Assembly: GCA_964415295.1 (NCBI GenBank)
Contig: CAYPYN010000004.1
Span: forward strand, 268,573 to 332,572
Length of the DNA stretch: 64,000 bases
Direction of reading: 5' to 3'
Origin: an uncultured Bacteroidota bacterium
GTDB lineage: Bacteria; CLD3; SB21
Part shown: one piece after another, positions 24,952-36,377 of the stretch
How positions within the stretch are numbered: the stretch's first letter is position 1
How the letters are laid out: each line of letters starts with the position of its first letter
Notes under the pieces: model-generated
Told to the model about the DNA's origin: nothing
Database searches by the model: none
What the model saw: only the letters and a program-made list of their open reading frames with translations
Made by a program: the position numbers and the translations under genes

Positions 24952-26295
24952 TCAGTGACGTTTGAAACCGTACTTTTCAATCTTATGATACAACGTCACG
25001 CGGTCGATCCGCAGCATTTCGGCGCTTCGCGAAATATTCCAGCGGTTCTTTTCGAGTATATGTAAGATATGCCTGCGCTCCACGGCCGACAGACTCAGAT
25101 CCCCATCGTCCAAGGGTTCCGAACGGGCAGTATGAAAAGGCAGGTCCGATACCTGTATGGAATCCGTCTTACCTACTACCAGCGCTCTTTCTATTGCGTT
25201 TTCTAATTCCCGGACATTGCCCGGCCATTCGTACCGCAACAAGAATTCCCGGGCCTCGGTACTCAGAACATGCGGTGTCTTATTCATGGCGGCGGCAAAT
25301 TTGTGCACAAAATATTCGGCCAGCGGGAGTATGTCCTCGCGCCGGTCCCGGAGTGGCGGAATGAAAAGTGTGAAGACATTCAGACGGTAATAAAGGTCTT
25401 CGCGAAACTTACCGCTTTTCACTTTTTCCTCAAGAGACTCATTAGTGGCGCCGATAATCCGGCAATCCGAAGGGATCAGCTCCGAACCACCGACCCGGGC
25501 GAACCGTTTACTTTCGAGTACTCTCAAAAGTTCTACCTGCAGACGTGTCGGTATCGATCCGATCTCATCCAGAAAAATAGTGCCTCCGTCGGCCATTTCA
25601 AAACGGCCTTTCCGGCGATGATGCGCTCCGGCCACCGCTCCTTTTTCGTGCCCGAAAAGCTCTATTTCAAGCAAAGGCTCGGACATCGCGCCGCAATTCA
25701 CCGTCACAATTGGAAAATATTTTCTTTTGCTGTTCATATGGATCGCCCTGGCCACCAGTTCCTTGCCCGTGCCGCGTTCGCCGCGGATCATGACGTTCGT
25801 TTCTGTTTGCGCGACGGAATTGATCAGTTCAAATATTTTCTTCATCGACGTACTCTCGCCGACGAGATTGTCCGGCCGGATAATCTGGTCGATTTTGTCC
25901 TTGAGTTGTTCGTTCTCTGTACGCAAGGCCTTTTGTTCAAAGGCTTTCTGCACCAGATGATTCAATTCCTCGGGATCGATCGGTTTTGTTATGTAGTCAT
26001 ACGCGCCGTCCTTGAGCGCGGTAATGGCTGTCGTGACAGAGGCATAAGCCGTAATAAGTATGACAATCGAACCCGGATCGGCTTGTTTGATCTTTTTCAG
26101 CAACGTGAGGCCATCCATATCTGGCATTCGCATGTCCAGCAAATACAGATCGTAGTGATCTTTGATCACACGCGAAAGCGCTCCCTCGCCGCTGCTTTCG
26201 GACGTTACGTCATAGCCTTCTTCTTCAAACCAATGTTGAAGCGATTCGCGTACGATCGGTTCGTCGTCTACAATCAGAAGTTTTCTTTTTTCCAT
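24952..26295 (-). CDS. Sigma-54-dependent response regulator (NtrC family: receiver, AAA+, Fis-type HTH)
   Basis: Receiver domain (DDEP…D…KP), Walker A GERGTGKE, the sigma-54 interaction loop GHEKGAVAGA, and a C-terminal HTH. The start was placed at MEKRKLL, abutting the upstream kinase stop. Confidence 0.85.
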   Translation of the reverse strand: MEKRKLLIVDDEPIVRESLQHWFEEEGYDVTSESSGEGALSRVIKDHYDLYLLDMRMPDMDGLTLLKKIKQADPGSIVILITAYASVTTAITALKDGAYDYITKPIDPEELNHLVQKAFEQKALRTENEQLKDKIDQIIRPDNLVGESTSMKKIFELINSVAQTETNVMIRGERGTGKELVARAIHMNSKRKYFPIVTVNCGAMSEPLLEIELFGHEKGAVAGAHHRRKGRFEMADGGTIFLDEIGSIPTRLQVELLRVLESKRFARVGGSELIPSDCRIIGATNESLEEKVKSGKFREDLYYRLNVFTLFIPPLRDRREDILPLAEYFVHKFAAAMNKTPHVLSTEAREFLLRYEWPGNVRELENAIERALVVGKTDSIQVSDLPFHTARSEPLDDGDLSLSAVERRHILHILEKNRWNISRSAEMLRIDRVTLYHKIEKYGFKRH

Positions 26296-26296
26296 A

Positions 26297-27934
26297 TTAC
26301 GATCCCGGTTTATCGGCCAGCGGCAATACAATCCTGAATGCGGTTCCCTCCGGAGAGGTCTTTTCAACGTCCACGCTGCCGTGATGGTGAGTGACTATGC
26401 CATAAACCACAGCCAGTCCGAGCCCAGTACCCTTACCTTCGGATTTGGTTGTAAAAAAGGGTTCATAGATGTGCGGAAGATCTTTTTCCCGGATCCCGGA
26501 ACCGTTATCTCCGATGCGTAGCACGATCTTACCGCTGTCCGTCCGGGTTTCAACGGTTATCCTGCCGTTATTGCCGATAGCCTCAATGGCATTCATGAAT
26601 AAGGCCAATACGGCTTGCTGGATCTTCTGCGGATCGCACAGTATATCCGAACGGTCGGCTTCAAAACGCTCGGATGTAACGATGCGATTCATTTCCAGAT
26701 GATGACTCACCAGCGACAGCGCCTTGCGGATAAGCGTATGCAGATCATGCCGCATAAACATTTCTTCGTCTCGATGGGAGAAAACCAGCAGATCTTTGAC
26801 AATGCGTCCGCAGCGCACCGATTCCTCCGAGATCATACCTAAATGCTCCAGTATTTTCGAATACTCGCGATCCTTTTGCATCTGTTGCAATTGCCGGCTT
26901 ATCAACTTACTGAACGTCAAAATGCCTTCGAGAGGATTATTCAATTCGTGCGCAACGGTTGCGGATAACTTGCCAAGGGCGGCTAATTTTTCTATTTGAA
27001 CGATTTGTTCGTATACTTTCTTCAATTCTTCGGTTTTTTCATTCACTTTGGTATTCAGACTCTCCGACCACTCACGGATTTCCCTATGGGCCACATCCAG
27101 CTTGGAGGACATGTCATTGAAGCGTGCGGCCAAGAGCCCCAGTTCATCACTGGAATCGAGAGTGATTCGGTAAGTCAGGTTACCCTGCCCGATCTCCCGC
27201 ATGCCTTTATGAATGCGTCTTATCGGACGATTTACCAGCACGGTAATAAAAAAGCCGCAACACAAAGAAATGATCGCGGTCAAAGCGACCGAGCCGTAGA
27301 CAATGTCTCGGGTGTTGGAGCGGATGAGTTTTTCCGCCCGATCAAACGAGATAACCACATCCAGCACACCTAGGATCTTTTCTTCGGTCTTATGGGCGTG
27401 GCATCCGGACGAGAAGCATTCTTTCTCGTTCTCGATCGGATTGATGAGGCCCAGCACCTTTTGGCCTCCGGACTGAGTGTATAAGCGGGTCAAGGCGCTG
27501 GTGGGTACCTTGGAGAGTGCTGTGGACTCGCTGTGACAAATGATGCAGGCTTCGGCCTTGATATCTACCGTTTTCAGTCGCTCCGACGGATCGGTCGAGA
27601 ACATAATGGTGCCGAGTTTATTGTAAATGCGTATTTGCACCACATCATGCTCCTTCCCGATCGTATGGATAATGTGGTGAACGTCTTCCCTCCGGTTTAG
27701 CAGCATGGAGTAACGCGTGGACTTTTTTATAACGTCGCTGAGCTGATAGGCGTTTTGCGCATACGTGCGGGTCAATTCGGATTCGAGGCGTGCGGTAGTG
27801 AAATACGTATATAGAGCAAGATTAACGAGAAGAATTCCGGAGATCACCAAGATCAGTTTGACGCTTAACTTATGTATCCATCCAAACCGCATCGCGTCTC
27901 CAATTGAAGTGTGGCAATGTACCAAAAACGACAC
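26297..27934 (-). CDS. Sensor histidine kinase with a periplasmic CxxCH + Cx4CH domain, HAMP, HisKA and HATPase
   Basis: Two TM helices bracket a ~165-aa loop containing CIICH and CFSSGCH. An H-box (HELNNPL) and N/G boxes follow. The start may instead be Met 15 (27892). Confidence 0.8.
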   Translation of the reverse strand: MSFLVHCHTSIGDAMRFGWIHKLSVKLILVISGILLVNLALYTYFTTARLESELTRTYAQNAYQLSDVIKKSTRYSMLLNRREDVHHIIHTIGKEHDVVQIRIYNKLGTIMFSTDPSERLKTVDIKAEACIICHSESTALSKVPTSALTRLYTQSGGQKVLGLINPIENEKECFSSGCHAHKTEEKILGVLDVVISFDRAEKLIRSNTRDIVYGSVALTAIISLCCGFFITVLVNRPIRRIHKGMREIGQGNLTYRITLDSSDELGLLAARFNDMSSKLDVAHREIREWSESLNTKVNEKTEELKKVYEQIVQIEKLAALGKLSATVAHELNNPLEGILTFSKLISRQLQQMQKDREYSKILEHLGMISEESVRCGRIVKDLLVFSHRDEEMFMRHDLHTLIRKALSLVSHHLEMNRIVTSERFEADRSDILCDPQKIQQAVLALFMNAIEAIGNNGRITVETRTDSGKIVLRIGDNGSGIREKDLPHIYEPFFTTKSEGKGTGLGLAVVYGIVTHHHGSVDVEKTSPEGTAFRIVLPLADKPGS

Positions 27935-27992: not shown

Positions 27993-28724
27993 CTATAAAC
28001 TCTTGATCCGGATCTTCTGCTTAAAAAGAAAATTCAGAATTTCGAAATAATTGTCTTTACCGATACGCTGATACAAAAACCGCCCGCCCGCACCTCTGCT
28101 CATGGATGGTATTTCAGGAACCTGCTCCTTCAGTCTGACGAGCTTTCGGGAAAGGCCGATCAATTGCTGCTGCCACTCCTGCTGTGAGAGCCTTTCCCTT
28201 TCGATCTCGCCTTTCTCCGATTGAATGATGCCGAGGACGCCACGCATCGGCCCTTCGCCGATCCCATCTTCGGATTTATCAAGAAAAAGAAAATGGATCG
28301 GCGACATTACGGTCAAACCTCCCCAGGCGCCGCTCAAGGTCACACAGGCCTGACCTTTCCGGATCCGTTCGCCCTGACGGCATGGCACCACCGAGAAGAC
28401 GTTATCGAGGAACCGAATGGCCAGCGAACTGAGACTGATGCGGTATGTACGATCGGGTAATTCATCCAGAACGAGGTTGCCGGGAAGATAAATGGAACGT
28501 TTATTCGGATACTCGGTCATAAGACTATTGAGGATACGGTCGAGCATATCGGATCCGTCTTCCTGAGCCCCTATATCTTCCTTTACCGTTTGAATATGGC
28601 TGCGGTTCCTCATCACATTGTCGAAGTCACAATGCTCGCAGTCAAAGGATTTGTCGCACAGTTTATAATCCACAACATGCGAGGCCATCCAAACACATGC
28701 GGCATTTTCGATATTGCTTTTCAC
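27993..28724 (-). CDS. Stand-alone protein with an N-terminal Cys cluster and a glycine-cleavage H-protein-like domain (no lipoyl-Lys)
   Basis: C-x5-C-x2-C at the N-terminus. The central region was aligned by hand to the GcvH hybrid-barrel (…DRTYRISLSS… / …TVMSPIHF…). This alignment is weaker than for the two receiver fusions. Confidence 0.45.
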   Translation of the reverse strand: MKSNIENAACVWMASHVVDYKLCDKSFDCEHCDFDNVMRNRSHIQTVKEDIGAQEDGSDMLDRILNSLMTEYPNKRSIYLPGNLVLDELPDRTYRISLSSLAIRFLDNVFSVVPCRQGERIRKGQACVTLSGAWGGLTVMSPIHFLFLDKSEDGIGEGPMRGVLGIIQSEKGEIERERLSQQEWQQQLIGLSRKLVRLKEQVPEIPSMSRGAGGRFLYQRIGKDNYFEILNFLFKQKIRIKSL

Positions 28725-28763: not shown

Positions 28764-29927
28764 TTACCTTACAAAAAACTCAGCCACCACTTTTTGCCAG
28801 TTCACATCCGACAGTTTTTCAAACTGGCCAACATAGATCTGGCTGTCTTCGACGTATTCACCGGCCGGCTTTTCCGATTTCAAAAGGTCTTTCATCAGAT
28901 TCTTTAACTTTTCTAGATCTTCCTGGAAAAAGGCCACGGCCGACTTGCCGATGTGCATACTCTTTATCTCGTGATCGAAATTATCCGTGTCAAAAGAGCA
29001 GATCCAGTTGCCCTCGTAGGGCGTCACATCCAGCGCCGATGTATTGTCCTTGACGTACTGATTGATCTGAGATATCTTGCCGCTGACCGGGGAATTGAAC
29101 GTCACACTCCGATTGCCCTGCCTGACGGTGAATAACGGCTGGCCGGCTTTGACGGTCATTCCAAGGTTCGGCAACTCAACGGATCCGACACGACCTATCA
29201 GTTTTTTGGCAAAGTCGTCGAGTCCGACCTTGGCAATGCCCTCTTGATTGATACTGACCCATGTATGATTCTTGGAAATGAACACACCGCCCGGTATCGA
29301 AAATTCGCCGCGTACAAAATCCCCTGAGGCGGGCATGTGCGTGATGTGGACCTGCGGTTTGAGTTGTTTCTGGATCCGGTCCTGGCGTTTGATCAGGGTT
29401 TTCTTTACGAAATCCAGCAATTCATCTTCGGTAAAAGGCTTCTGCACGTAATCCATCGCACCGTATTTCATCGTCTCAACGGCTGTTTCCACGGAGGCAT
29501 AACCGGTGATAATAATCACATCGATATCCGGACGCATATGTTTGACCGCTTTGGTCACCTCCACACCGTCCATGGCCGGCATCTTGAGATCCGTAAATAC
29601 AAAATCATAATGATGCTTCTGAATAAGCCCGAGTGCTTCCTGACCTGTTTCGACGGTGTCTACCGAATAGCCGTCGAGGACCAGGATTTTGCGGAAGCTC
29701 CCCAAAATGACCTCTTCGTCATCCACACACAGAATTTTGGCCTTCGGATTTTGTACTTCGGCGCGCTTGAGCGTTTTGGCTTCATGGGTAAAGTCCAGAC
29801 GGAGGCTTTCCTGCAACACGGTCTCGCGTTCTTTCTTTAGTTTTTTCTCCGTTAACTGTTTTGCGATCACGCGAATAAGGATGTCCGCGATGATGAAGAT
29901 GATGACTGCAACGATTAATAGTGCCAT
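28764..29927 (-). CDS. Membrane-anchored response-regulator receiver fused to a GcvH-like domain
   Basis: One N-terminal TM helix and a receiver domain (…CVDDEE…FTDLKMPAMDG…KPF). The C-terminal 120 aa align with E. coli GcvH (HTW/HEW, VGLDDFA/VGITEHA, SPVSG/APVSG, PYEGNW/PYAGGW). The lipoyl-Lys position is occupied by Asn. Confidence 0.7.
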   Translation of the reverse strand: MALLIVAVIIFIIADILIRVIAKQLTEKKLKKERETVLQESLRLDFTHEAKTLKRAEVQNPKAKILCVDDEEVILGSFRKILVLDGYSVDTVETGQEALGLIQKHHYDFVFTDLKMPAMDGVEVTKAVKHMRPDIDVIIITGYASVETAVETMKYGAMDYVQKPFTEDELLDFVKKTLIKRQDRIQKQLKPQVHITHMPASGDFVRGEFSIPGGVFISKNHTWVSINQEGIAKVGLDDFAKKLIGRVGSVELPNLGMTVKAGQPLFTVRQGNRSVTFNSPVSGKISQINQYVKDNTSALDVTPYEGNWICSFDTDNFDHEIKSMHIGKSAVAFFQEDLEKLKNLMKDLLKSEKPAGEYVEDSQIYVGQFEKLSDVNWQKVVAEFFVR

Positions 29928-29980: not shown

Positions 29981-30772
29981 TTATAATTTATCTGAACTAT
30001 AGGGTAATAATTGTCTGGTCTCGTAATCGATATCGGTCGGAATAACACGGTATATCCAGCCTTCGAAATAAGGATCTTTTTCAACAATGCTTGGGTTTTC
30101 CCTGATGCTCTTATTTACCTCAATGATCCGGCCCGATACCGGTGACAGGATCTTATGTATCCTATCATCCCCCGACCGGATCACGGCACAGCTCGTGCCC
30201 TGAGCAATCTCTTCGTCCGCGGCCAGCAATTCAATCTCTTTCACCGATTCTATGGTCTTCAGGAATAGATCGCAGACACCCACGACGGCATTGCCTTCAT
30301 TCTCCTGATATACCCAGCTGGAGTAGCCCAATCGAAGATACCGGGCCGGACATGGTACGAAAAGAAGGCCGCTATGGCGCTTAGCCTGTTTTTCCTTTAT
30401 CTCCTGGTATCGGTGAGCACGGTATAGCGAACCCAGAAGTTCATCTACCGTAAAGGGCTTCGGAATAAAATCAACAGCACCCTGATACAGGGAATTGACC
30501 GCATTCTCAACCGTCGAATAGCCGGTCATCATGATGAGCACAGCACGACTGTCCCTGTTTTTCAATTCCTCCAGGATCTGAAAACCGTCACCATCAGGCA
30601 TCATAATGTCGCAGAGTACGATCGGATACTCGTTGGCCGCGATCTTTTCAATAGCCGACTGCACATTGAGTGCCGAATCGACAACGTATTTCTCCAGTGA
30701 ACAGATCTTTATCAAGCCGTCCAGTATCACCTGTTCATCGTCTATGGCCAATATGTCTGCCGTTCGATTCAT
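29981..30772 (-). CDS. Response-regulator receiver fused to a GcvH-like domain
   Basis: Receiver domain (IDDEQ…CDIMMPDGDG…KPF), then a GcvH-like domain (…VGVCDLF…SPVSGRIIEVN…PYFEGWIYRV) with no Lys at the lipoylation position. Confidence 0.7.
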   Translation of the reverse strand: MNRTADILAIDDEQVILDGLIKICSLEKYVVDSALNVQSAIEKIAANEYPIVLCDIMMPDGDGFQILEELKNRDSRAVLIMMTGYSTVENAVNSLYQGAVDFIPKPFTVDELLGSLYRAHRYQEIKEKQAKRHSGLLFVPCPARYLRLGYSSWVYQENEGNAVVGVCDLFLKTIESVKEIELLAADEEIAQGTSCAVIRSGDDRIHKILSPVSGRIIEVNKSIRENPSIVEKDPYFEGWIYRVIPTDIDYETRQLLPYSSDKL

Positions 30773-30781
30773 GCAGTATTC

Positions 30782-32647
30782 CTATTTATAAGGCAGCCGA
30801 ATAGTGAAAGTAGTTCCTTTCCCTATTTCGCTATCAACACCGATGGTACCGTTATGATTGTCGATGATACCCCAAATGACGGCCAGGCCAAGGCCGGTAC
30901 CTTTTTGTCCTTTGGTGGTGAAAAACGGTTCGAAGATCTTTGGTAAATCTTCTTTATTGATGCCGCTGCCGGTATCGGTTATTCGGATCTCAAGATATTC
31001 TTTTAGTCCGGCCGAATCGACAAAATCCCACTTCTCCCAATCGCTGTTCTCCGAGGAACAGACCTCATAAGTTCCTTCTCCGCTGATCTCAAACGAAAGA
31101 ACCGGGGCTCCGCAATTCGGACAGTTCTTACCTTGCTGGACGATGGAATTCTGACAATCGGGACACACGTATTTCGCGTCCTTACCGATATCAAAACCTG
31201 TTGTGAAATTATTTCTGTGTTTGCCGTATATCGGATCCAAATGGATTATCCCTTCATGCCCGCCGGATATGACCTTGACCTTTAATGCTGGGAATCCGTC
31301 GATCTTGTATTCATTGTCGATGAGGCTGTGCCGCTTGGGACAAGTCGCTTTTTTGACTTGCGCCACACCGAACGGCGATAGTGAAATATGCTTGGTTGTG
31401 ATCGTGATATTTCCGCCGTCCTTACCGATCGCATCGGCGGCATTGACAAAAAGATTGATGAAAACCTGCTCCATTTGGTTGGAATCTACCGTGATCGGCG
31501 GCAGATCGGGTTCGATCTGTTTGACGATCTTGACTTTTCGCATGGACAGCTGTTTTTCGATCACGGCTATGGCTCTTACAATGATCTCTCCGACATCGGC
31601 CATGGTTTTCTTGGGAACCGATTGCCGCGCAAAATCAAGCAGACTTTTGACGATCTCACGGCTCCGCAATGTCTCACGCACGATAACTTTGAGGTCTTCC
31701 TGAAATTCAGGATTATCCTTGGTCCGTTTGAGCAGAAAACTGCTGTAGGTCAGTACGCCCGTGAGAGGATTATTGATCTCATGCGCAACGCCGGCCGCAA
31801 GTCGACCCAGAGAAGCCATCTTGTCCGATTGAAAGAGCTGCATCCTCGCTTCGGATAACTTCTTGGTCATATTGTTGAAGGATTCGCCCAGTTTACCAAT
31901 CTCATTGTCCCCCAAATCTTTTATCGCGTAACTCAAATTACCCTGACTCACCTGCTGTGTCGCGTGAAGCAGATCGCGGACCGGATGCGATACCCACCGG
32001 CCGACAAAAAAAGCGATAAGGGAGCCCAATGCTACTATGGCGATCATCGCGAAAATGACGATCTCCCACTCCCTGGTAACAATGGCATTGTCGACTTCAG
32101 CCAATGAAATTGAAACATCCAGAACTCCCAGAACCTTCTGGTTTTCCGGATGCGCGTGGCAGTCGTTTTCCCAGCAGGACCGTTCGTTGTAAATCGGCGT
32201 GATGATGCCAAGTACACGATTGGAATCCTTGTGGACCTTAAATATGCGCGTTCTTTCTGTGATAGAGATCTGCTCCAGTGCCTTATCTTCGGCGTGGCAA
32301 GCATAACAGCTCTCCTCTTTCTTATCTACCATCTTATTGATATTCGCCGAATCGGAGGAGTAGATGATCTCGCCAACTTTATTGATGATGCGGACATCGC
32401 GTATTTGAGGCTGGGTGCCGATGGAATTGATGGTCTGCTGGATCCGATCTCGCTGGTTGAACATCATATCGAATCGGGTGCTGGCGATGACGGTCTCCCC
32501 CAACTGGTTGGCATGACGCTCAACCTCCGCTATCAGCGTATTACTCTGGGACTTGATATTGAAATAGGCAAATACGCCGATGATAAGAAGCGAAGCGAGC
32601 GCAACCACGGAGATCAGACGAAATCCTATTTTATTGAACATGGTCAT
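30782..32647 (-). CDS. Sensor histidine kinase, paralogue of 26297-27934, with a periplasmic CxxCH + Cx4CH domain and a ~130-aa zinc-ribbon-containing insertion in the HATPase domain
   Basis: CYACH and CWENDCH lie in the loop between the TM helices. An H-box (HEINNPL) is present. Between the N-box (NAADAI) and the G1 box (DTGSGI) there is an insert containing CPKRH and CPDC…CPNC. Confidence 0.8.
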   Translation of the reverse strand: MTMFNKIGFRLISVVALASLLIIGVFAYFNIKSQSNTLIAEVERHANQLGETVIASTRFDMMFNQRDRIQQTINSIGTQPQIRDVRIINKVGEIIYSSDSANINKMVDKKEESCYACHAEDKALEQISITERTRIFKVHKDSNRVLGIITPIYNERSCWENDCHAHPENQKVLGVLDVSISLAEVDNAIVTREWEIVIFAMIAIVALGSLIAFFVGRWVSHPVRDLLHATQQVSQGNLSYAIKDLGDNEIGKLGESFNNMTKKLSEARMQLFQSDKMASLGRLAAGVAHEINNPLTGVLTYSSFLLKRTKDNPEFQEDLKVIVRETLRSREIVKSLLDFARQSVPKKTMADVGEIIVRAIAVIEKQLSMRKVKIVKQIEPDLPPITVDSNQMEQVFINLFVNAADAIGKDGGNITITTKHISLSPFGVAQVKKATCPKRHSLIDNEYKIDGFPALKVKVISGGHEGIIHLDPIYGKHRNNFTTGFDIGKDAKYVCPDCQNSIVQQGKNCPNCGAPVLSFEISGEGTYEVCSSENSDWEKWDFVDSAGLKEYLEIRITDTGSGINKEDLPKIFEPFFTTKGQKGTGLGLAVIWGIIDNHNGTIGVDSEIGKGTTFTIRLPYK

Positions 32648-32655
32648 GATTCAAG

Positions 32656-33801
32656 TCATTTTGTAACCGGCTTGCCGGGCTTCTGTTTCGGGTACGAATA
32701 TCCCTCGTGACATCCGCTGCAGTCCGGTTTGAGTCCGTAATTATTCTTCGAATGGCAATCGGAACATTCGAGGTCCGAATGATTATCATCGAGCTGCAGG
32801 CCTGTCACCGCATGCTTGAATGTTGCCTTGTTCCAGCCCGTATGACACCGGATGCATTGGCTGTCGACCTTCTTGAAAGGCTGTTTTGTGCCGTGGCATT
32901 TGGCGCAGGATAGTCGCTCATGGTATTTACCAAGAGCCCAACCCGTTTTCTTCGCATGATCGAAAGGCCCCAATTTGGTATCGCTATGGCAGTCGCCGCA
33001 CGCTTGATTCTTGTCATGACAGGCGATGCAACGGGAATGTTGTTCCTCAAATGAGGCATTGACTGGTATTACTCTCTTAATCGGCTGCTTCGATTTATTG
33101 GCTGCATCATGGCATTTCGTGCAGTTCTCTTGCTTGTGACAAGTAACGCATGTTAATCCGAATTTCTTGGTATGCTCATCATGATAAAAGGTAACCAATT
33201 TCCCTTTGTCGGAATTGGTCTCATACATGAGGCTGGTTGGCTCATTTAGGGTTGGATGGCTCTTCCCCGCATACATTTTTTTGTCTTTGGCGGAACCCGT
33301 TTTATCCCCTGACCTCAGTTCGTGGCAAGTATTGCATCCCGTTTCATGGCTCCATTCTCGATGGCAATCCATGCATTGACGATGGAAAGCGCCCTTCAGA
33401 TCTGGAAGACTCACATCATCTCTTTTTCTTCCCGGCTCATGGCAGCTTTGACATTTAAGAATAGGTCCTGACGTATTGTGATGATGGCAATTTTCGCAAC
33501 CGCCGGACATCACGGACATCTGCGCGTGGATTTTGTGTGAAAAATAGACCGGACCGTAGCGGTCTGTGAGTTGATCCATAACAATGAGTTCCGGTGTCTC
33601 CTCGGGCGCCTGATACACAGTAGCGATCTTCTCCCTCGGACAAAGAACCAGGCACGGTTCATCTTTGGTAGGAACTTCACACGTATGGCACGTTTTACAA
33701 CTGAGGTTCAGTTTGGTGTGGCTTTTGACAACACTCTGCTGGGCCAGGATCCGGCCGGATACGGCAACTACTAACAATATAAAGAAGAATAGCTTTTTCA
33801 T
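32656..33801 (-). CDS. Periplasmic multihaem cytochrome c (13 CxxCH motifs)
   Basis: Signal peptide, then the motifs CKTCH, CENCH, CQSCH, CMDCH, CNTCH, CVTCH, CTKCH, CIACH, CGDCH, CAKCH, CIRCH, CSDCH and CSGCH. Confidence 0.85.
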   Translation of the reverse strand: MKKLFFFILLVVAVSGRILAQQSVVKSHTKLNLSCKTCHTCEVPTKDEPCLVLCPREKIATVYQAPEETPELIVMDQLTDRYGPVYFSHKIHAQMSVMSGGCENCHHHNTSGPILKCQSCHEPGRKRDDVSLPDLKGAFHRQCMDCHREWSHETGCNTCHELRSGDKTGSAKDKKMYAGKSHPTLNEPTSLMYETNSDKGKLVTFYHDEHTKKFGLTCVTCHKQENCTKCHDAANKSKQPIKRVIPVNASFEEQHSRCIACHDKNQACGDCHSDTKLGPFDHAKKTGWALGKYHERLSCAKCHGTKQPFKKVDSQCIRCHTGWNKATFKHAVTGLQLDDNHSDLECSDCHSKNNYGLKPDCSGCHEGYSYPKQKPGKPVTK

Positions 33802-35045
33802 GACTCCACCCCTCTGATTGAGTATTTGGTGGGCTGTGCGGTGGGTTTACCAGGCAAACTTATCACTGAAAAATTCATGACTATGAAACGGTATGCGAGA
33901 ACCAACATCGCGACAAAACCCAATGTCACCGAAATCTCTCCGATGGACGGAAAGTACGGCGTGGTGGCATACGGCGGCGTATAGGCGACAATAAAGTTAT
34001 TAATGCGGTTGAGCAGTACGCCAAGAACAACCAACGTGGCGGCCGTGAACAGCAATGGCGGAGATTTCAGGACTTTGGGCGAGAGGAACATGCGTAGAGG
34101 AATAATGACCCCAAATAGGATCTCGATCGTGAACATCACGCTCTCCGTACTGAATTCCGCAAGATAAACAAAAGTCTCTCTGACGAACATATCGCCGATC
34201 TTGAAGGCGAGATATATGCCAAGCAATGGCGCAACCATGGAACCTAGCCGAGAAAGGATCGGCATTTCAGGTTTTAGCTTGAGCGAACGGGATGCAATAA
34301 GCGACTCAAAAATGACCATCGGAAAACCGACGGAAACGGCTGATAACAGGAACAGCAACGGAAGGATCGGTGTTTGCCACAGCGGATGCATTTTCTGACC
34401 GGCAATTACCATCAGAGTTCCCAGCGACGACTGATGCAGAGTTGATAAAACGACGCCGGCGATGATAAAAACAAACATAGTCTTCGAAAGGCCGCGATCG
34501 AGCAGCCGCAGTATCTTGTCTGAAATCCTGTTAAATACAGAAAGAGGCCCTGGCAAATTGACTTTGCCGATAAACCGTTCGGTAAAGATGGGCAGAAATT
34601 CTATGTATAAGACGGTCATGTAAATCATGACGCAGATACCCACTTCAAAGAGAGCGGAATTGCCGTTCCACATGATCAGCGGATGCCAGATATAATACCA
34701 GCGGCCAATGTCAACAAAAACGCCGATGGCCACGAACGTATATCCGAGCATGGCGGTTAATAGTGCGGGACGGATCACCACATGGTACTTTTCGCGGTGC
34801 ATCACATGACCCAATGCAGCGGTAGTAAAACCGCCGGCCGCCAACGCGACGCCCGCGGCCACGTCAACACCTATCCAGAGTCCCCACGGATATTGATTAT
34901 CCAAATTGGTCACCGCACCGAGCCCAAAGAGAAACCGTCCCATCAGAAATACCATCCCGTTGACAGCGATGAGAATGAGTATGATGACTCCGGGCGTAAA
35001 GAATTTATATTTGATCGGTACCGGGTTAACGGCTTCGTGGTTCAT
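33798..35045 (-). CDS. NrfD/PsrC-family integral membrane quinone-interacting subunit
   Basis: About 415 aa of polytopic membrane protein with the NrfD-family pattern. The start was placed at MNHEAVNP. ATGA overlaps occur at both ends (with the 4Fe-4S gene stop and with the cytochrome start). Confidence 0.8.
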   Translation of the reverse strand: MNHEAVNPVPIKYKFFTPGVIILILIAVNGMVFLMGRFLFGLGAVTNLDNQYPWGLWIGVDVAAGVALAAGGFTTAALGHVMHREKYHVVIRPALLTAMLGYTFVAIGVFVDIGRWYYIWHPLIMWNGNSALFEVGICVMIYMTVLYIEFLPIFTERFIGKVNLPGPLSVFNRISDKILRLLDRGLSKTMFVFIIAGVVLSTLHQSSLGTLMVIAGQKMHPLWQTPILPLLFLLSAVSVGFPMVIFESLIASRSLKLKPEMPILSRLGSMVAPLLGIYLAFKIGDMFVRETFVYLAEFSTESVMFTIEILFGVIIPLRMFLSPKVLKSPPLLFTAATLVVLGVLLNRINNFIVAYTPPYATTPYFPSIGEISVTLGFVAMLVLAYRFIVMNFSVISLPGKPTAQPTKYSIRGVES

Positions 35046-35950
35046 AGCTCTTCCTCCTCCGCTAATTCTTTGCGGCGTTTGGCGATCCACATGATCCCGC
35101 CCAGCAAAGCATAGAGGGAAACCGGCGGAACAAAATAAGCAAAAATGCCGTGCTGAATGGATTCGGATACGCCGGGCGCCGGACTCTTTCCGAGTTTGGG
35201 GAATCCGAGTTCTGAAAAATCCTTGGAAGCAAGATACAGCCAGGAAGTCCCTCCAACTTCGTATTCACCAAAAATATGATCAACATAACGGTCCGGATTT
35301 TTCTTGATTCTGTTTCTGGCAATCTTTATGAGTTCGGTACGGGAGCCGTATGTGAGCGCCTCTACGGGACATATAGCCACACAAGCAGGCCATTGACCCT
35401 CATTGGTTCGATTAATGCAAAAGTCGCATTTCATGATGCGCGGTTTCAAAGCAACCTCGTATTCAAAAGAGGGTACCTGGAACGGACAAGCCGCCATACA
35501 ATAGCGGCAGCCGATACACATGTCGGTATCCCAGACGACCGCTCCGTTCTCAAGTTTTGAAAATGCGCCAACAATGCACGCCGAAACGCAGGCCGGGCGG
35601 TCGCAATGCATACACTGTACTTTGACGTCCACGGGAAGATTGGAATTCTTGCCGTGCTCGTATTCATTCACGACGGTTAATGCCGTCGGATCAGGTCTTC
35701 TTCGAGATTCAAGGATCTTTCGGTCTTCGTATGTAACAAGTTCCCCGGCCGTCATTTGATGGGCATCTTTGCATGCCCATTCGCAATTTCTGCAGCCGAC
35801 GCAGGTCGTAGTGTCCACAAGAACACCCATCCGGTCTTCCGAAAGAATATTCGTAGGTCCTGCTTTTGCGGATGAAGCCGACAGCCCCGTAGCGGCAGCC
35901 CCGGCCACAACCGATTTCTTGAGAAAGTCGCGACGACTCTTTCCAGACAT
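35042..35950 (-). CDS. Tat-exported 4Fe-4S ferredoxin-type subunit (NrfC/HmcB/PsrB-like) with a C-terminal TM anchor
   Basis: Twin-arginine signal SRRDFLKK, four Cys clusters (CVGCRNCEWAC, CMHCDRPAC, CIGCRYCMAAC, C…CVAICP), and a hydrophobic C-terminus. The start was chosen at the Met preceding the Tat motif. Confidence 0.8.
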   Translation of the reverse strand: MSGKSRRDFLKKSVVAGAAATGLSASSAKAGPTNILSEDRMGVLVDTTTCVGCRNCEWACKDAHQMTAGELVTYEDRKILESRRRPDPTALTVVNEYEHGKNSNLPVDVKVQCMHCDRPACVSACIVGAFSKLENGAVVWDTDMCIGCRYCMAACPFQVPSFEYEVALKPRIMKCDFCINRTNEGQWPACVAICPVEALTYGSRTELIKIARNRIKKNPDRYVDHIFGEYEVGGTSWLYLASKDFSELGFPKLGKSPAPGVSESIQHGIFAYFVPPVSLYALLGGIMWIAKRRKELAEEEEL

Positions 35951-36377
35951 GTTCCGTTCCTTTCGAAGTGTTGAAAACAATTCCACCAGCATACCAATAT
36001 ACATGTGTTTTTTTTCACAAACAATGACGACCGTCATGTTTTTCAACAGTCGCTCATATTTATTTTAGACCTTTATAAAGCACTAATACTATCAATATCA
36101 ATAGCTTGTGTCGTGTTTGATGGAACGAATATAGTTTGTTACAAAAGGAACAATGTTGATTAAATGATGTCTTTTTCAATGTAAGTGTTAATAATGTAAG
36201 CACTATTGATAGCTAACGGTGTATAGAGCTTGGGAACAATAAATTCTGAGAAAACTTCCAGAAATCGCTTCGGATGAACAAAAGTTGTATGGCTTCCCTA
36301 CTTTCTACTTGATTATCAGGAAAAAAAATAATATAGATTTATATTATGTTTCTCTTTGGACCCAGTATGGAGTATCT

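Follow-up and report, generated by a model that had tools for sequence, protein, structure and literature searches.

We analysed a stretch of 64,000 nucleotides from an uncultured Bacteroidota bacterium (contig CAYPYN010000004.1, positions 268,573 to 332,572 of the forward strand; hereafter the window), which encodes two sensor histidine kinases, called here kinase 1 and kinase 2, together with a cytochrome module. Both kinases carry a periplasmic sensor domain of the sCache_heme type with two candidate haem attachment motifs. We consider it likely that this domain binds two c-type haems, which would act jointly through the axial ligands described below and signal to the regulators encoded beside each kinase. 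The evidence comes from conservation of the motifs in diverged relatives, homology to haem-c sensors of solved structure, the predicted fold and topology of the domain, and its genomic context.

Two kinases with paralogous periplasmic sensor domains

The two kinases are 32% identical across 447 residues (E 1e-79), with both motifs in register. Their features relevant to the sensor domain are listed below in window coordinates.

30782-32647, minus strand: kinase 2, 621 amino acids; transmembrane (TM) helix, sensor loop, TM helix, HAMP, HisKA and HATPase_c with an inserted zinc ribbon (Pfam, hydropathy)
32558-32617, minus strand: kinase 2 TM helix 1, residues 11-30 (hydropathy scan, translation)
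32095-32557, minus strand: kinase 2 periplasmic sensor domain, residues 31-185, predicted single-Cache (structural model, Foldseek, profile match)
32465-32467, minus strand: kinase 2 Met61, putative distal ligand for the haem at site 2 (alignment)
32294-32308, minus strand: kinase 2 candidate haem site 1, CYACH, residues 114-118 (C114, C117, H118)
32150-32176, minus strand: kinase 2 candidate haem site 2, CWENDCHAH, residues 158-166 (C158, C163, H164, H166)
32000-32068, minus strand: kinase 2 TM helix 2, residues 194-216, running into HAMP (hydropathy, Pfam)
31853-32008, minus strand: kinase 2 HAMP, starting at residue 214 (Pfam)
26297-27934, minus strand: kinase 1, 545 amino acids; same plan as kinase 2 minus the zinc-ribbon insertion (Pfam, alignment)
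27304-27799, minus strand: kinase 1 periplasmic sensor domain, residues 46-211 (hydropathy, translation)
27704-27706, minus strand: kinase 1 Met77, counterpart of kinase 2 Met61 (alignment, translation)
27533-27547, minus strand: kinase 1 candidate haem site 1, CIICH, residues 130-134 (translation)
27392-27418, minus strand: kinase 1 candidate haem site 2, CFSSGCHAH, residues 173-181 (translation)

In both proteins a loop of about 155-165 residues lies between two membrane helices and is followed by HAMP. In kinase 2 the loop is bounded by hydrophobic segments at residues 11-30 and 194-216, and HAMP begins at residue 214, which places the loop on the extracytoplasmic side. The original prediction, made from the sequence of the window, had reported these two loops with a CxxCH and a later Cx4CH in each; its coordinates and sequences are exact, all four motifs are as it described them, and the arrangement of helix, loop, helix and HAMP keeps the loop out of the cytoplasm, as it requires.

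Conservation of the two motifs

The kinase 2 loop contains no cysteines besides the four in the motifs, and the distance from site 1 to site 2 is about 43-44 residues in all family members examined. An initial homologue search, whose matches were all shorter than 300 amino acids, returned 59 relatives from metagenome-assembled genomes (MAGs) of Ignavibacteria, Calditrichia, Aminicenantes and Gemmatimonadota, in which both motifs are invariant or nearly so, save in obviously frameshifted fragments. A profile search over 1.84 billion cluster representatives then matched 3397 proteins at E <=0.001 and 510 at E <=1e-30. Its top matches, clustered at 50% identity, gave an alignment of 144 sequences including both kinases. 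Site 1 is invariant in this alignment, with C114, C117 and H118 (kinase 2 numbering) found in 144/144 sequences. At site 2, C158 is retained in 141/144, C163 and H164 in 138/144 and H166 in 133/144, while M61 is present in 143/144. The exceptions are frameshifted or truncated fragments, or sequences with shorter Cys-Cys spacers, and the alignment contains no further conserved His or Met in the sensor domain. The original prediction depended on such conservation of the Cys and His positions, which also rules out a chance or low-complexity origin of the motifs, given how far the relatives have diverged.

The spacer between the two cysteines of site 2 is variable: Cx4CH occurs in 129/144 sequences, Cx3CH in 5 and CxxCH in 6, and the remaining 4, unmatched by the scan, include one Cx5CH (P0081). 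The terminal CH is retained across these variants of 2, 3, 4 and 5 residues. Cx3CH and Cx4CH are established haem sites in cytochromes c3, and haem-c attachment sites typically combine a variable spacer with a fixed Cys-His, as in those cytochromes. Thus, the drift of the site 2 spacer around a fixed CH points to haem-c attachment rather than to a metal or disulfide site, which would not be expected to vary in this way.

A Cys-rich metal site had been offered in the original prediction as the alternative to haem. Four cysteines and three histidines could in principle chelate Zn, Fe or Cu, or hold an Fe-S cluster, in a ligand-binding Cache domain, and haem in this subfamily is predicted from sequence. 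We nevertheless hold a domain devoid of haem to be very improbable. The family has haem-c domains among its homologues, and the motifs of the two fall in register; the axial-ligand position is occupied by a conserved Met, CH closes both motifs in every case, and the spacer length varies. Moreover, the domain is periplasmic, and the 13-haem cytochrome next to it implies that the cell makes haem-c proteins. The homology, the spacer variation and the Met conservation thus disfavour the metal site.

Some relatives depart from the common form of site 2. In P0064 a Ser replaces the first Cys, which would make a single-thioether attachment possible. The His two residues past the terminal CH is missing in all six CxxCH variants (e.g. 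P0114 and P0133) and present in 125/134 sequences with Cx3-4CH (Fisher p 5e-7), although the alignment of the short motifs in this comparison is ambiguous. The two-motif domain is also found outside histidine kinases: in P0122 (1092 amino acids, L087 7001-10279) a CxxCH plus Cx3CH version is fused to HAMP, several PAS and a GGDEF domain, so that it would feed cyclic di-GMP (c-di-GMP) signalling as well.

Homology to haem-c sensors and predicted fold

The kinase 2 loop alone, compared with the PDB, has as its top match 3B42, the haem-c sensor domain of the Geobacter chemoreceptor GSU0935, and the family profile A2 matches 3B42 with E 4.9e-9 and 3B47 (GSU0582) with E 6.4e-6. The segment NEQRCQSCH of GSU0935 pairs with NERSCWENDCH of kinase 2 across a gap of two residues, which brings the haem-binding CQSCH of GSU0935 and GSU0582 to the position of Cx4CH. 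Cx4CH would thus be the canonical haem site of the family, widened by two residues. By residue count in the alignment, Met61 of kinase 2 pairs with residue 26 of the 3B42 chain, which is Met60 of GSU0935. This Met is the distal axial ligand of the haem in the crystal as well as in the reduced form, and CO or NO takes its place on binding (PMC8396549). In the characterised single-haem sensors, whose midpoint potentials are -156 and -251 mV, oxidation frees the Met and alters the spin state, which is thought to shift the swapped N-terminal helices; GSU0582 and GSU0935 both bind NO in either redox state and CO when reduced (PMC8396549).

The window kinases and the two Geobacter proteins are therefore homologous, and share the fold, a motif after the equivalent beta-strand (NE..C..CH), a distal Met on the N-terminal helix and a location between two TM helices ahead of HAMP. 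They differ in that GSU0935 and GSU0582 have one haem on CxxCH, whereas the window kinases have Cx4CH-x-H plus an extra CxxCH between strands beta2 and beta3. Furthermore, neither GSU0935 nor GSU0582 has a His at the position of His166, and their output is that of a chemoreceptor, in contrast to the histidine kinases described here.

The AlphaFold2 model of the kinase 2 sensor domain (predicted local distance difference test, pLDDT, 80; predicted template modelling score, pTM, 0.75) contains a pair of long N-terminal helices and, after them, a five-stranded sheet, and each motif lies on a short helix. The top Foldseek matches are the sensor domains of WalK, GSU0935, KinD, DctB and CitA (E 1e-5 to 1e-3), and a single-Cache fold is predicted for the domain. 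Site 1 is placed between beta2 and beta3, where the single-haem relatives have a short linker. At the family level, PF21563 (Mcp40H-20_sensor) is matched by 28/29 members tested, with a best E of 3.8e-10.

The sCache_heme family unites GSU0582, GSU0935 and Tll0287; in its members the last strands are preceded by a short inserted helix whose CXXCH is 99% conserved (Deshpande et al., bioRxiv 2026, PMC12889525). With this family (DUF3365/Tll0287-like, PF11845) the window domains have in common the single-Cache fold, a short haem-binding helix before the last strands, an extracytoplasmic, periplasmic location and fusion to signalling modules, and the similarity to its members GSU0935 and GSU0582 is significant at the profile level. 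In contrast to its 99% CXXCH and single haem, about 90% of the present family have Cx4CH at that place, in addition to the extra site. Both kinases carry Cx4CH at the aligned position, and the haem-ligating CH is retained. Homology to GSU0935 and GSU0582, the single-Cache model, the interchange of spacers and the periplasmic topology together support the proposal of the original prediction that these are haem-c sensor domains.

A domain with a single haem, in which the other motif, most plausibly Cx4CH, forms a structural disulfide, a thiol redox switch or a metal site, appears improbable to us. In favour of one haem, Cx4CH is an uncommon motif, non-standard motifs require dedicated lyases in some maturation systems, and the sCache_heme family has 99% CXXCH, as noted above. 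However, it is Cx4CH that pairs with the site at which GSU0935 and GSU0582 are proven to bind haem. The length of its spacer ranges from 2 to 5 residues around a fixed CH, which neither a disulfide nor a metal site would require, and the cytochromes c3 provide established haem sites of the Cx3CH and Cx4CH types. Site 1, for its part, is invariant, its His included.

Sensors with two such motifs have been mentioned before. GSU0591 and GSU0599 of Geobacter are described as signal transducers with an extra haem motif of CX2-4CH signature (Londer 2006, as cited in PMC8396549), and GSU0599 is listed among two-component system proteins (PMC8396549). In Anaeromyxobacter, both Adeh_2011 and Adeh_3383 carry sensor domains that are homologous to those of GSU0582 and GSU0935 and bear a further motif for haem binding (PMC3831638). 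An extra CX2-4CH in a GSU0582/GSU0935-like domain is common to these four proteins and the window kinases, as compared by description only. The literature mentions these two-motif sensors in passing, and our search of it found no characterised two-haem member.

The kinases are encoded with a conserved cytochrome module

The minus strand of the window between 24952 and 36046 holds nine closely packed genes, with intergenic distances from overlap to about 60 bp (ORF list of the window). In descending order they encode an iron-sulfur (FeS) protein, an NrfD-type protein, a cytochrome c, kinase 2, two receiver/GcvH-like proteins, a 243-residue protein, kinase 1 and a sigma-54 activator. Apart from the kinases, these are as follows.

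35042-36046, minus strand: HmcB/HybA-like four-cluster FeS subunit with a twin-arginine translocation (TAT) signal (Pfam/NCBIfam)
33798-35090, minus strand: NrfD-type (HmcC/HybB-like) integral membrane quinone-interacting subunit (Pfam NrfD; NCBIfam HybB 348 bits, HmcC 278 bits)
32656-33801, minus strand: periplasmic multihaem cytochrome c with 13 CxxCH and a signal peptide (motif count, family scan)
29981-30772, minus strand: response regulator, receiver plus GcvH-like domain (Pfam Response_reg, GCV_H; syntenic in 74/80 loci)
28764-29927, minus strand: membrane-anchored response regulator with TM helix, receiver and GcvH-like domain (Pfam; syntenic in 70/80 loci)
27993-28724, minus strand: 243-residue protein with no family match (present in 23/80 loci)
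24952-26367, minus strand: NtrC-type sigma-54-dependent response regulator (Pfam/NCBIfam)

The gene for the 13-haem cytochrome stops 8 bp ahead of kinase 2, and the gene for kinase 1 overlaps that of the sigma-54 regulator. The regulator at 29981-30772 is the likely phosphorylation partner of kinase 2, and the sigma-54 regulator at 24952-26367 the likely partner of kinase 1. The genomes that match most closely are Ignavibacteriaceae MAGs, in which the sensor domain is 77-87% identical.

Synteny was counted in the best 80 loci of one genome scan, all from Ignavibacteriales, Melioribacter, Calditrichia or KSB1. In 70-74 of these loci the genes keep the order FeS, NrfD, cytochrome c, kinase 2-type kinase and two receiver/GcvH-like regulators, and the others are mostly cut contigs. 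In distant lineages, kinase 1-type kinases occur in clusters of the order GCV_H, FeS, NrfD (with or without a fused cytochrome c7), kinase and sigma-54 regulator, one of which adjoins an MtrB/PioB porin and multihaem cytochromes. Over the full length of kinase 1, the identity to P0075 is 41%; the gene for P0075 belongs to a cluster of FeS, NrfD-cytochrome, kinase and sigma-54 regulator genes.

The neighbouring genes resemble those of the Hmc/Nhc complexes of sulfate reducers, with matches to HmcB, HmcC and the C-terminal part of HmcA. The scores fall short of the equivalog cut-offs in every case (HmcB 332 vs 420 bits, HmcC 278 vs 550, HmcA 53 vs 400), as does that of the NrfD-type subunit for HybB. 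The module has 13 haems where Hmc/Nhc have 16 or 9, it lacks HmcDEF-like subunits, and its regulators are of other types. In the hmc operon the regulatory genes rrf1 and rrf2 come after the structural genes, and the regulatory genes of the present locus likewise lie 3' of the structural ones. Judged by these scores, the module appears to be Hmc-like without being an Hmc orthologue, and may represent a distinct cytochrome c:quinone oxidoreductase of Ignavibacteria, Melioribacter and Calditrichia. The published account of Melioribacter respiration contains no discussion of this gene cluster. Within the window there is no second FeS/NrfD/cytochrome module and no further multi-CxxCH ORF.

A parallel is found in Geobacter, where the sigma-54 regulator BccR (GSU0598) activates cbcBA, a cytochrome operon, when the redox potential falls (bioRxiv 10.1101/2021.04.15.440034). 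By locus number, the two-motif transducer GSU0599 lies beside bccR, which parallels the arrangement of kinase 1 and its NtrC-type regulator.

Weighing the two-haem proposal

Several observations weigh against two haems in each domain, or against a link to the adjacent module. Kinases 2 and 1 themselves score 19-24 bits on PF21563, for which the cut-off is 27, and give no match to PF11845 at E 0.01. The confidence of the AlphaFold2 model is lowest around site 1 (pLDDT 56-64), and about 10% of the relatives are devoid of His166, making its role as a ligand tentative. More generally, the case for haem in this subfamily is built on sequence comparison. No cytochrome c maturation genes occur among the scanned ORFs of the window, which bears on how Cx4CH would be handled. 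A scan for sigma-54 -24/-12 elements gave 18 matches where 25 were expected, with none in 36047-36284, the region 5' of the FeS gene. Finally, the two-motif domain is also encoded outside cytochrome clusters and coupled to a GGDEF output; since it is found in unrelated neighbourhoods, coupling to this complex is no intrinsic property of the domain.

These varied genomic contexts speak for another role of the two haems, in which a gas or small ligand (NO, CO, possibly sulfide or nitrite) would displace Met61 at haem 2 and the domain would be no redox reporter. Indeed, GSU0582 and GSU0935 bind NO and CO with displacement of Met60 (PMC8396549), and sCache_heme domains fused to signalling modules act as NO sensors (PMC12889525). 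We regard a pure ligand sensor as rather unlikely, because the tight and widely conserved operon with the cytochrome/NrfD module is better explained by sensing of electron flow, and because the added second haem would have no obvious part in gas binding. Gas sensing and redox sensing are, moreover, mutually compatible.

Proposed mechanism

In the two-haem domain as we propose it, haem 2 would occupy the canonical site of the family, bound covalently via Cx4CH; His164 would be its proximal ligand and Met61 of the N-terminal helix its exchangeable distal ligand. Haem 1 would be the addition, attached through CxxCH in the segment between beta2 and beta3, with His118 as proximal ligand. The likeliest distal ligand of haem 1 may be His166 (CH-x-H): this residue lies two positions past His164 and is absent in GSU0935 and GSU0582, which makes it a natural candidate for the added haem and would bring the two haems close together. 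The conserved set of H118, H164, M61 and H166 would suit two six-coordinate c-type haems.

Periplasmic electron carriers, of which the co-encoded 13-haem cytochrome is the prime candidate, would redox-cycle the haems, with haem 1 as the electron entry point or relay to the sensing haem. Redox-linked binding and release of Met61, or its displacement by NO or CO, would shift the N-terminal helices, and this shift would be transmitted via TM helix 2 and HAMP into the kinase core. The phosphorylation targets of kinase 2 would be both receiver/GcvH-like proteins encoded 3' of it, and that of kinase 1 the sigma-54 activator encoded 3' of it; the two kinases would jointly tune the expression or activity of the respiratory module. 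That the adjacent cytochrome complex is what the sensors read out, as the original prediction had suggested, is a guess that fits the very strong synteny.

A bolder version can be formulated, which we think doubtful: the extra haem would wire the Cache_heme sensor into the electron-transfer chain. The 13-haem cytochrome would feed haem 1 directly, which would set the coordination of haem 2, and the kinase would thereby gauge the flux through the module. Kinase 2 would act post-translationally, not through transcription: the membrane-anchored receiver/GcvH-like proteins would modify the working of the complex or of its partners in the cytoplasm. If true, this would constitute a new output branch of two-component systems, conserved across Ignavibacteriales, Melioribacteraceae, Calditrichia and KSB1.

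Both receiver/GcvH-like regulators are devoid of a DNA-binding domain, and their GcvH-like part matches PF01597 with E 5e-20. Judged by eye, the lipoyl-lysine is absent from both. Genes for receiver/GcvH-like proteins, or for GCV_H alone, recur beside two-motif kinases of distant lineages (L082 4678-5364, L085 14304-17575). A search of the literature for this regulator architecture found none.

Significance

Haem-c Cache sensors are among the few known bacterial means to read the periplasmic redox state or NO. Periplasmic haem-c sensors with Cache/PAS-like domains were already known, and the two-motif form was noted, going by brief mentions, in 2006 and 2013. Our comparison adds that Cx4CH would be the canonical site and CxxCH the addition, and that Met61 and His166 are conserved. 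It also adds a large subfamily with variation of the site 2 spacer, and an operon conserved in Ignavibacteria, Calditrichia and KSB1. The two-haem form appears large and widespread, going by the 510 cluster representatives at E <=1e-30, and stands repeatedly beside quinone-linked cytochrome modules and sigma-54 regulators. It is thus a good candidate for the sensor that chooses the membrane cytochrome complex according to potential in metal- or electrode-respiring bacteria; BccR/CbcBA in Geobacter is an example where such a sensor is still to be identified. The series from Cx2CH to Cx5CH within one scaffold should also be useful for studies of haem attachment. For now, the advance is incremental and extends a described family.

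Other features of the locus

Kinase 1 probably starts at Met15, and kinase 2, going by its homologues, at Met3. The HATPase_c domain of kinase 2 carries an insertion of about 120 residues (residues ~425-545, window 31000-31375), which contains a zinc ribbon CxxC-x10-CxxC at 31100-31165 with weak matches to Pfam DZR. The ribbon is present in 66/69 full-length orthologues of kinase 2 and absent from kinase 1.

The ORF of the FeS subunit as listed begins at TTG, 32 codons 5' of the likely real start MSGKSRRDFLKK, the TAT signal (window 35950-36046); this internal MSGKSRRDFLKK is probably the true start of the subunit.

The 243-residue protein (27993-28724) gives no Pfam match even at E 10. The possibility that it is a further GcvH-like protein was rejected, as the comparison gave no support. 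Its N-terminus is Cys-rich (CDKSFDCEHCDF), and in the 23 related loci that have it the ORF adjoins kinase 1-type kinases, often 3' of a second FeS/NrfD pair.

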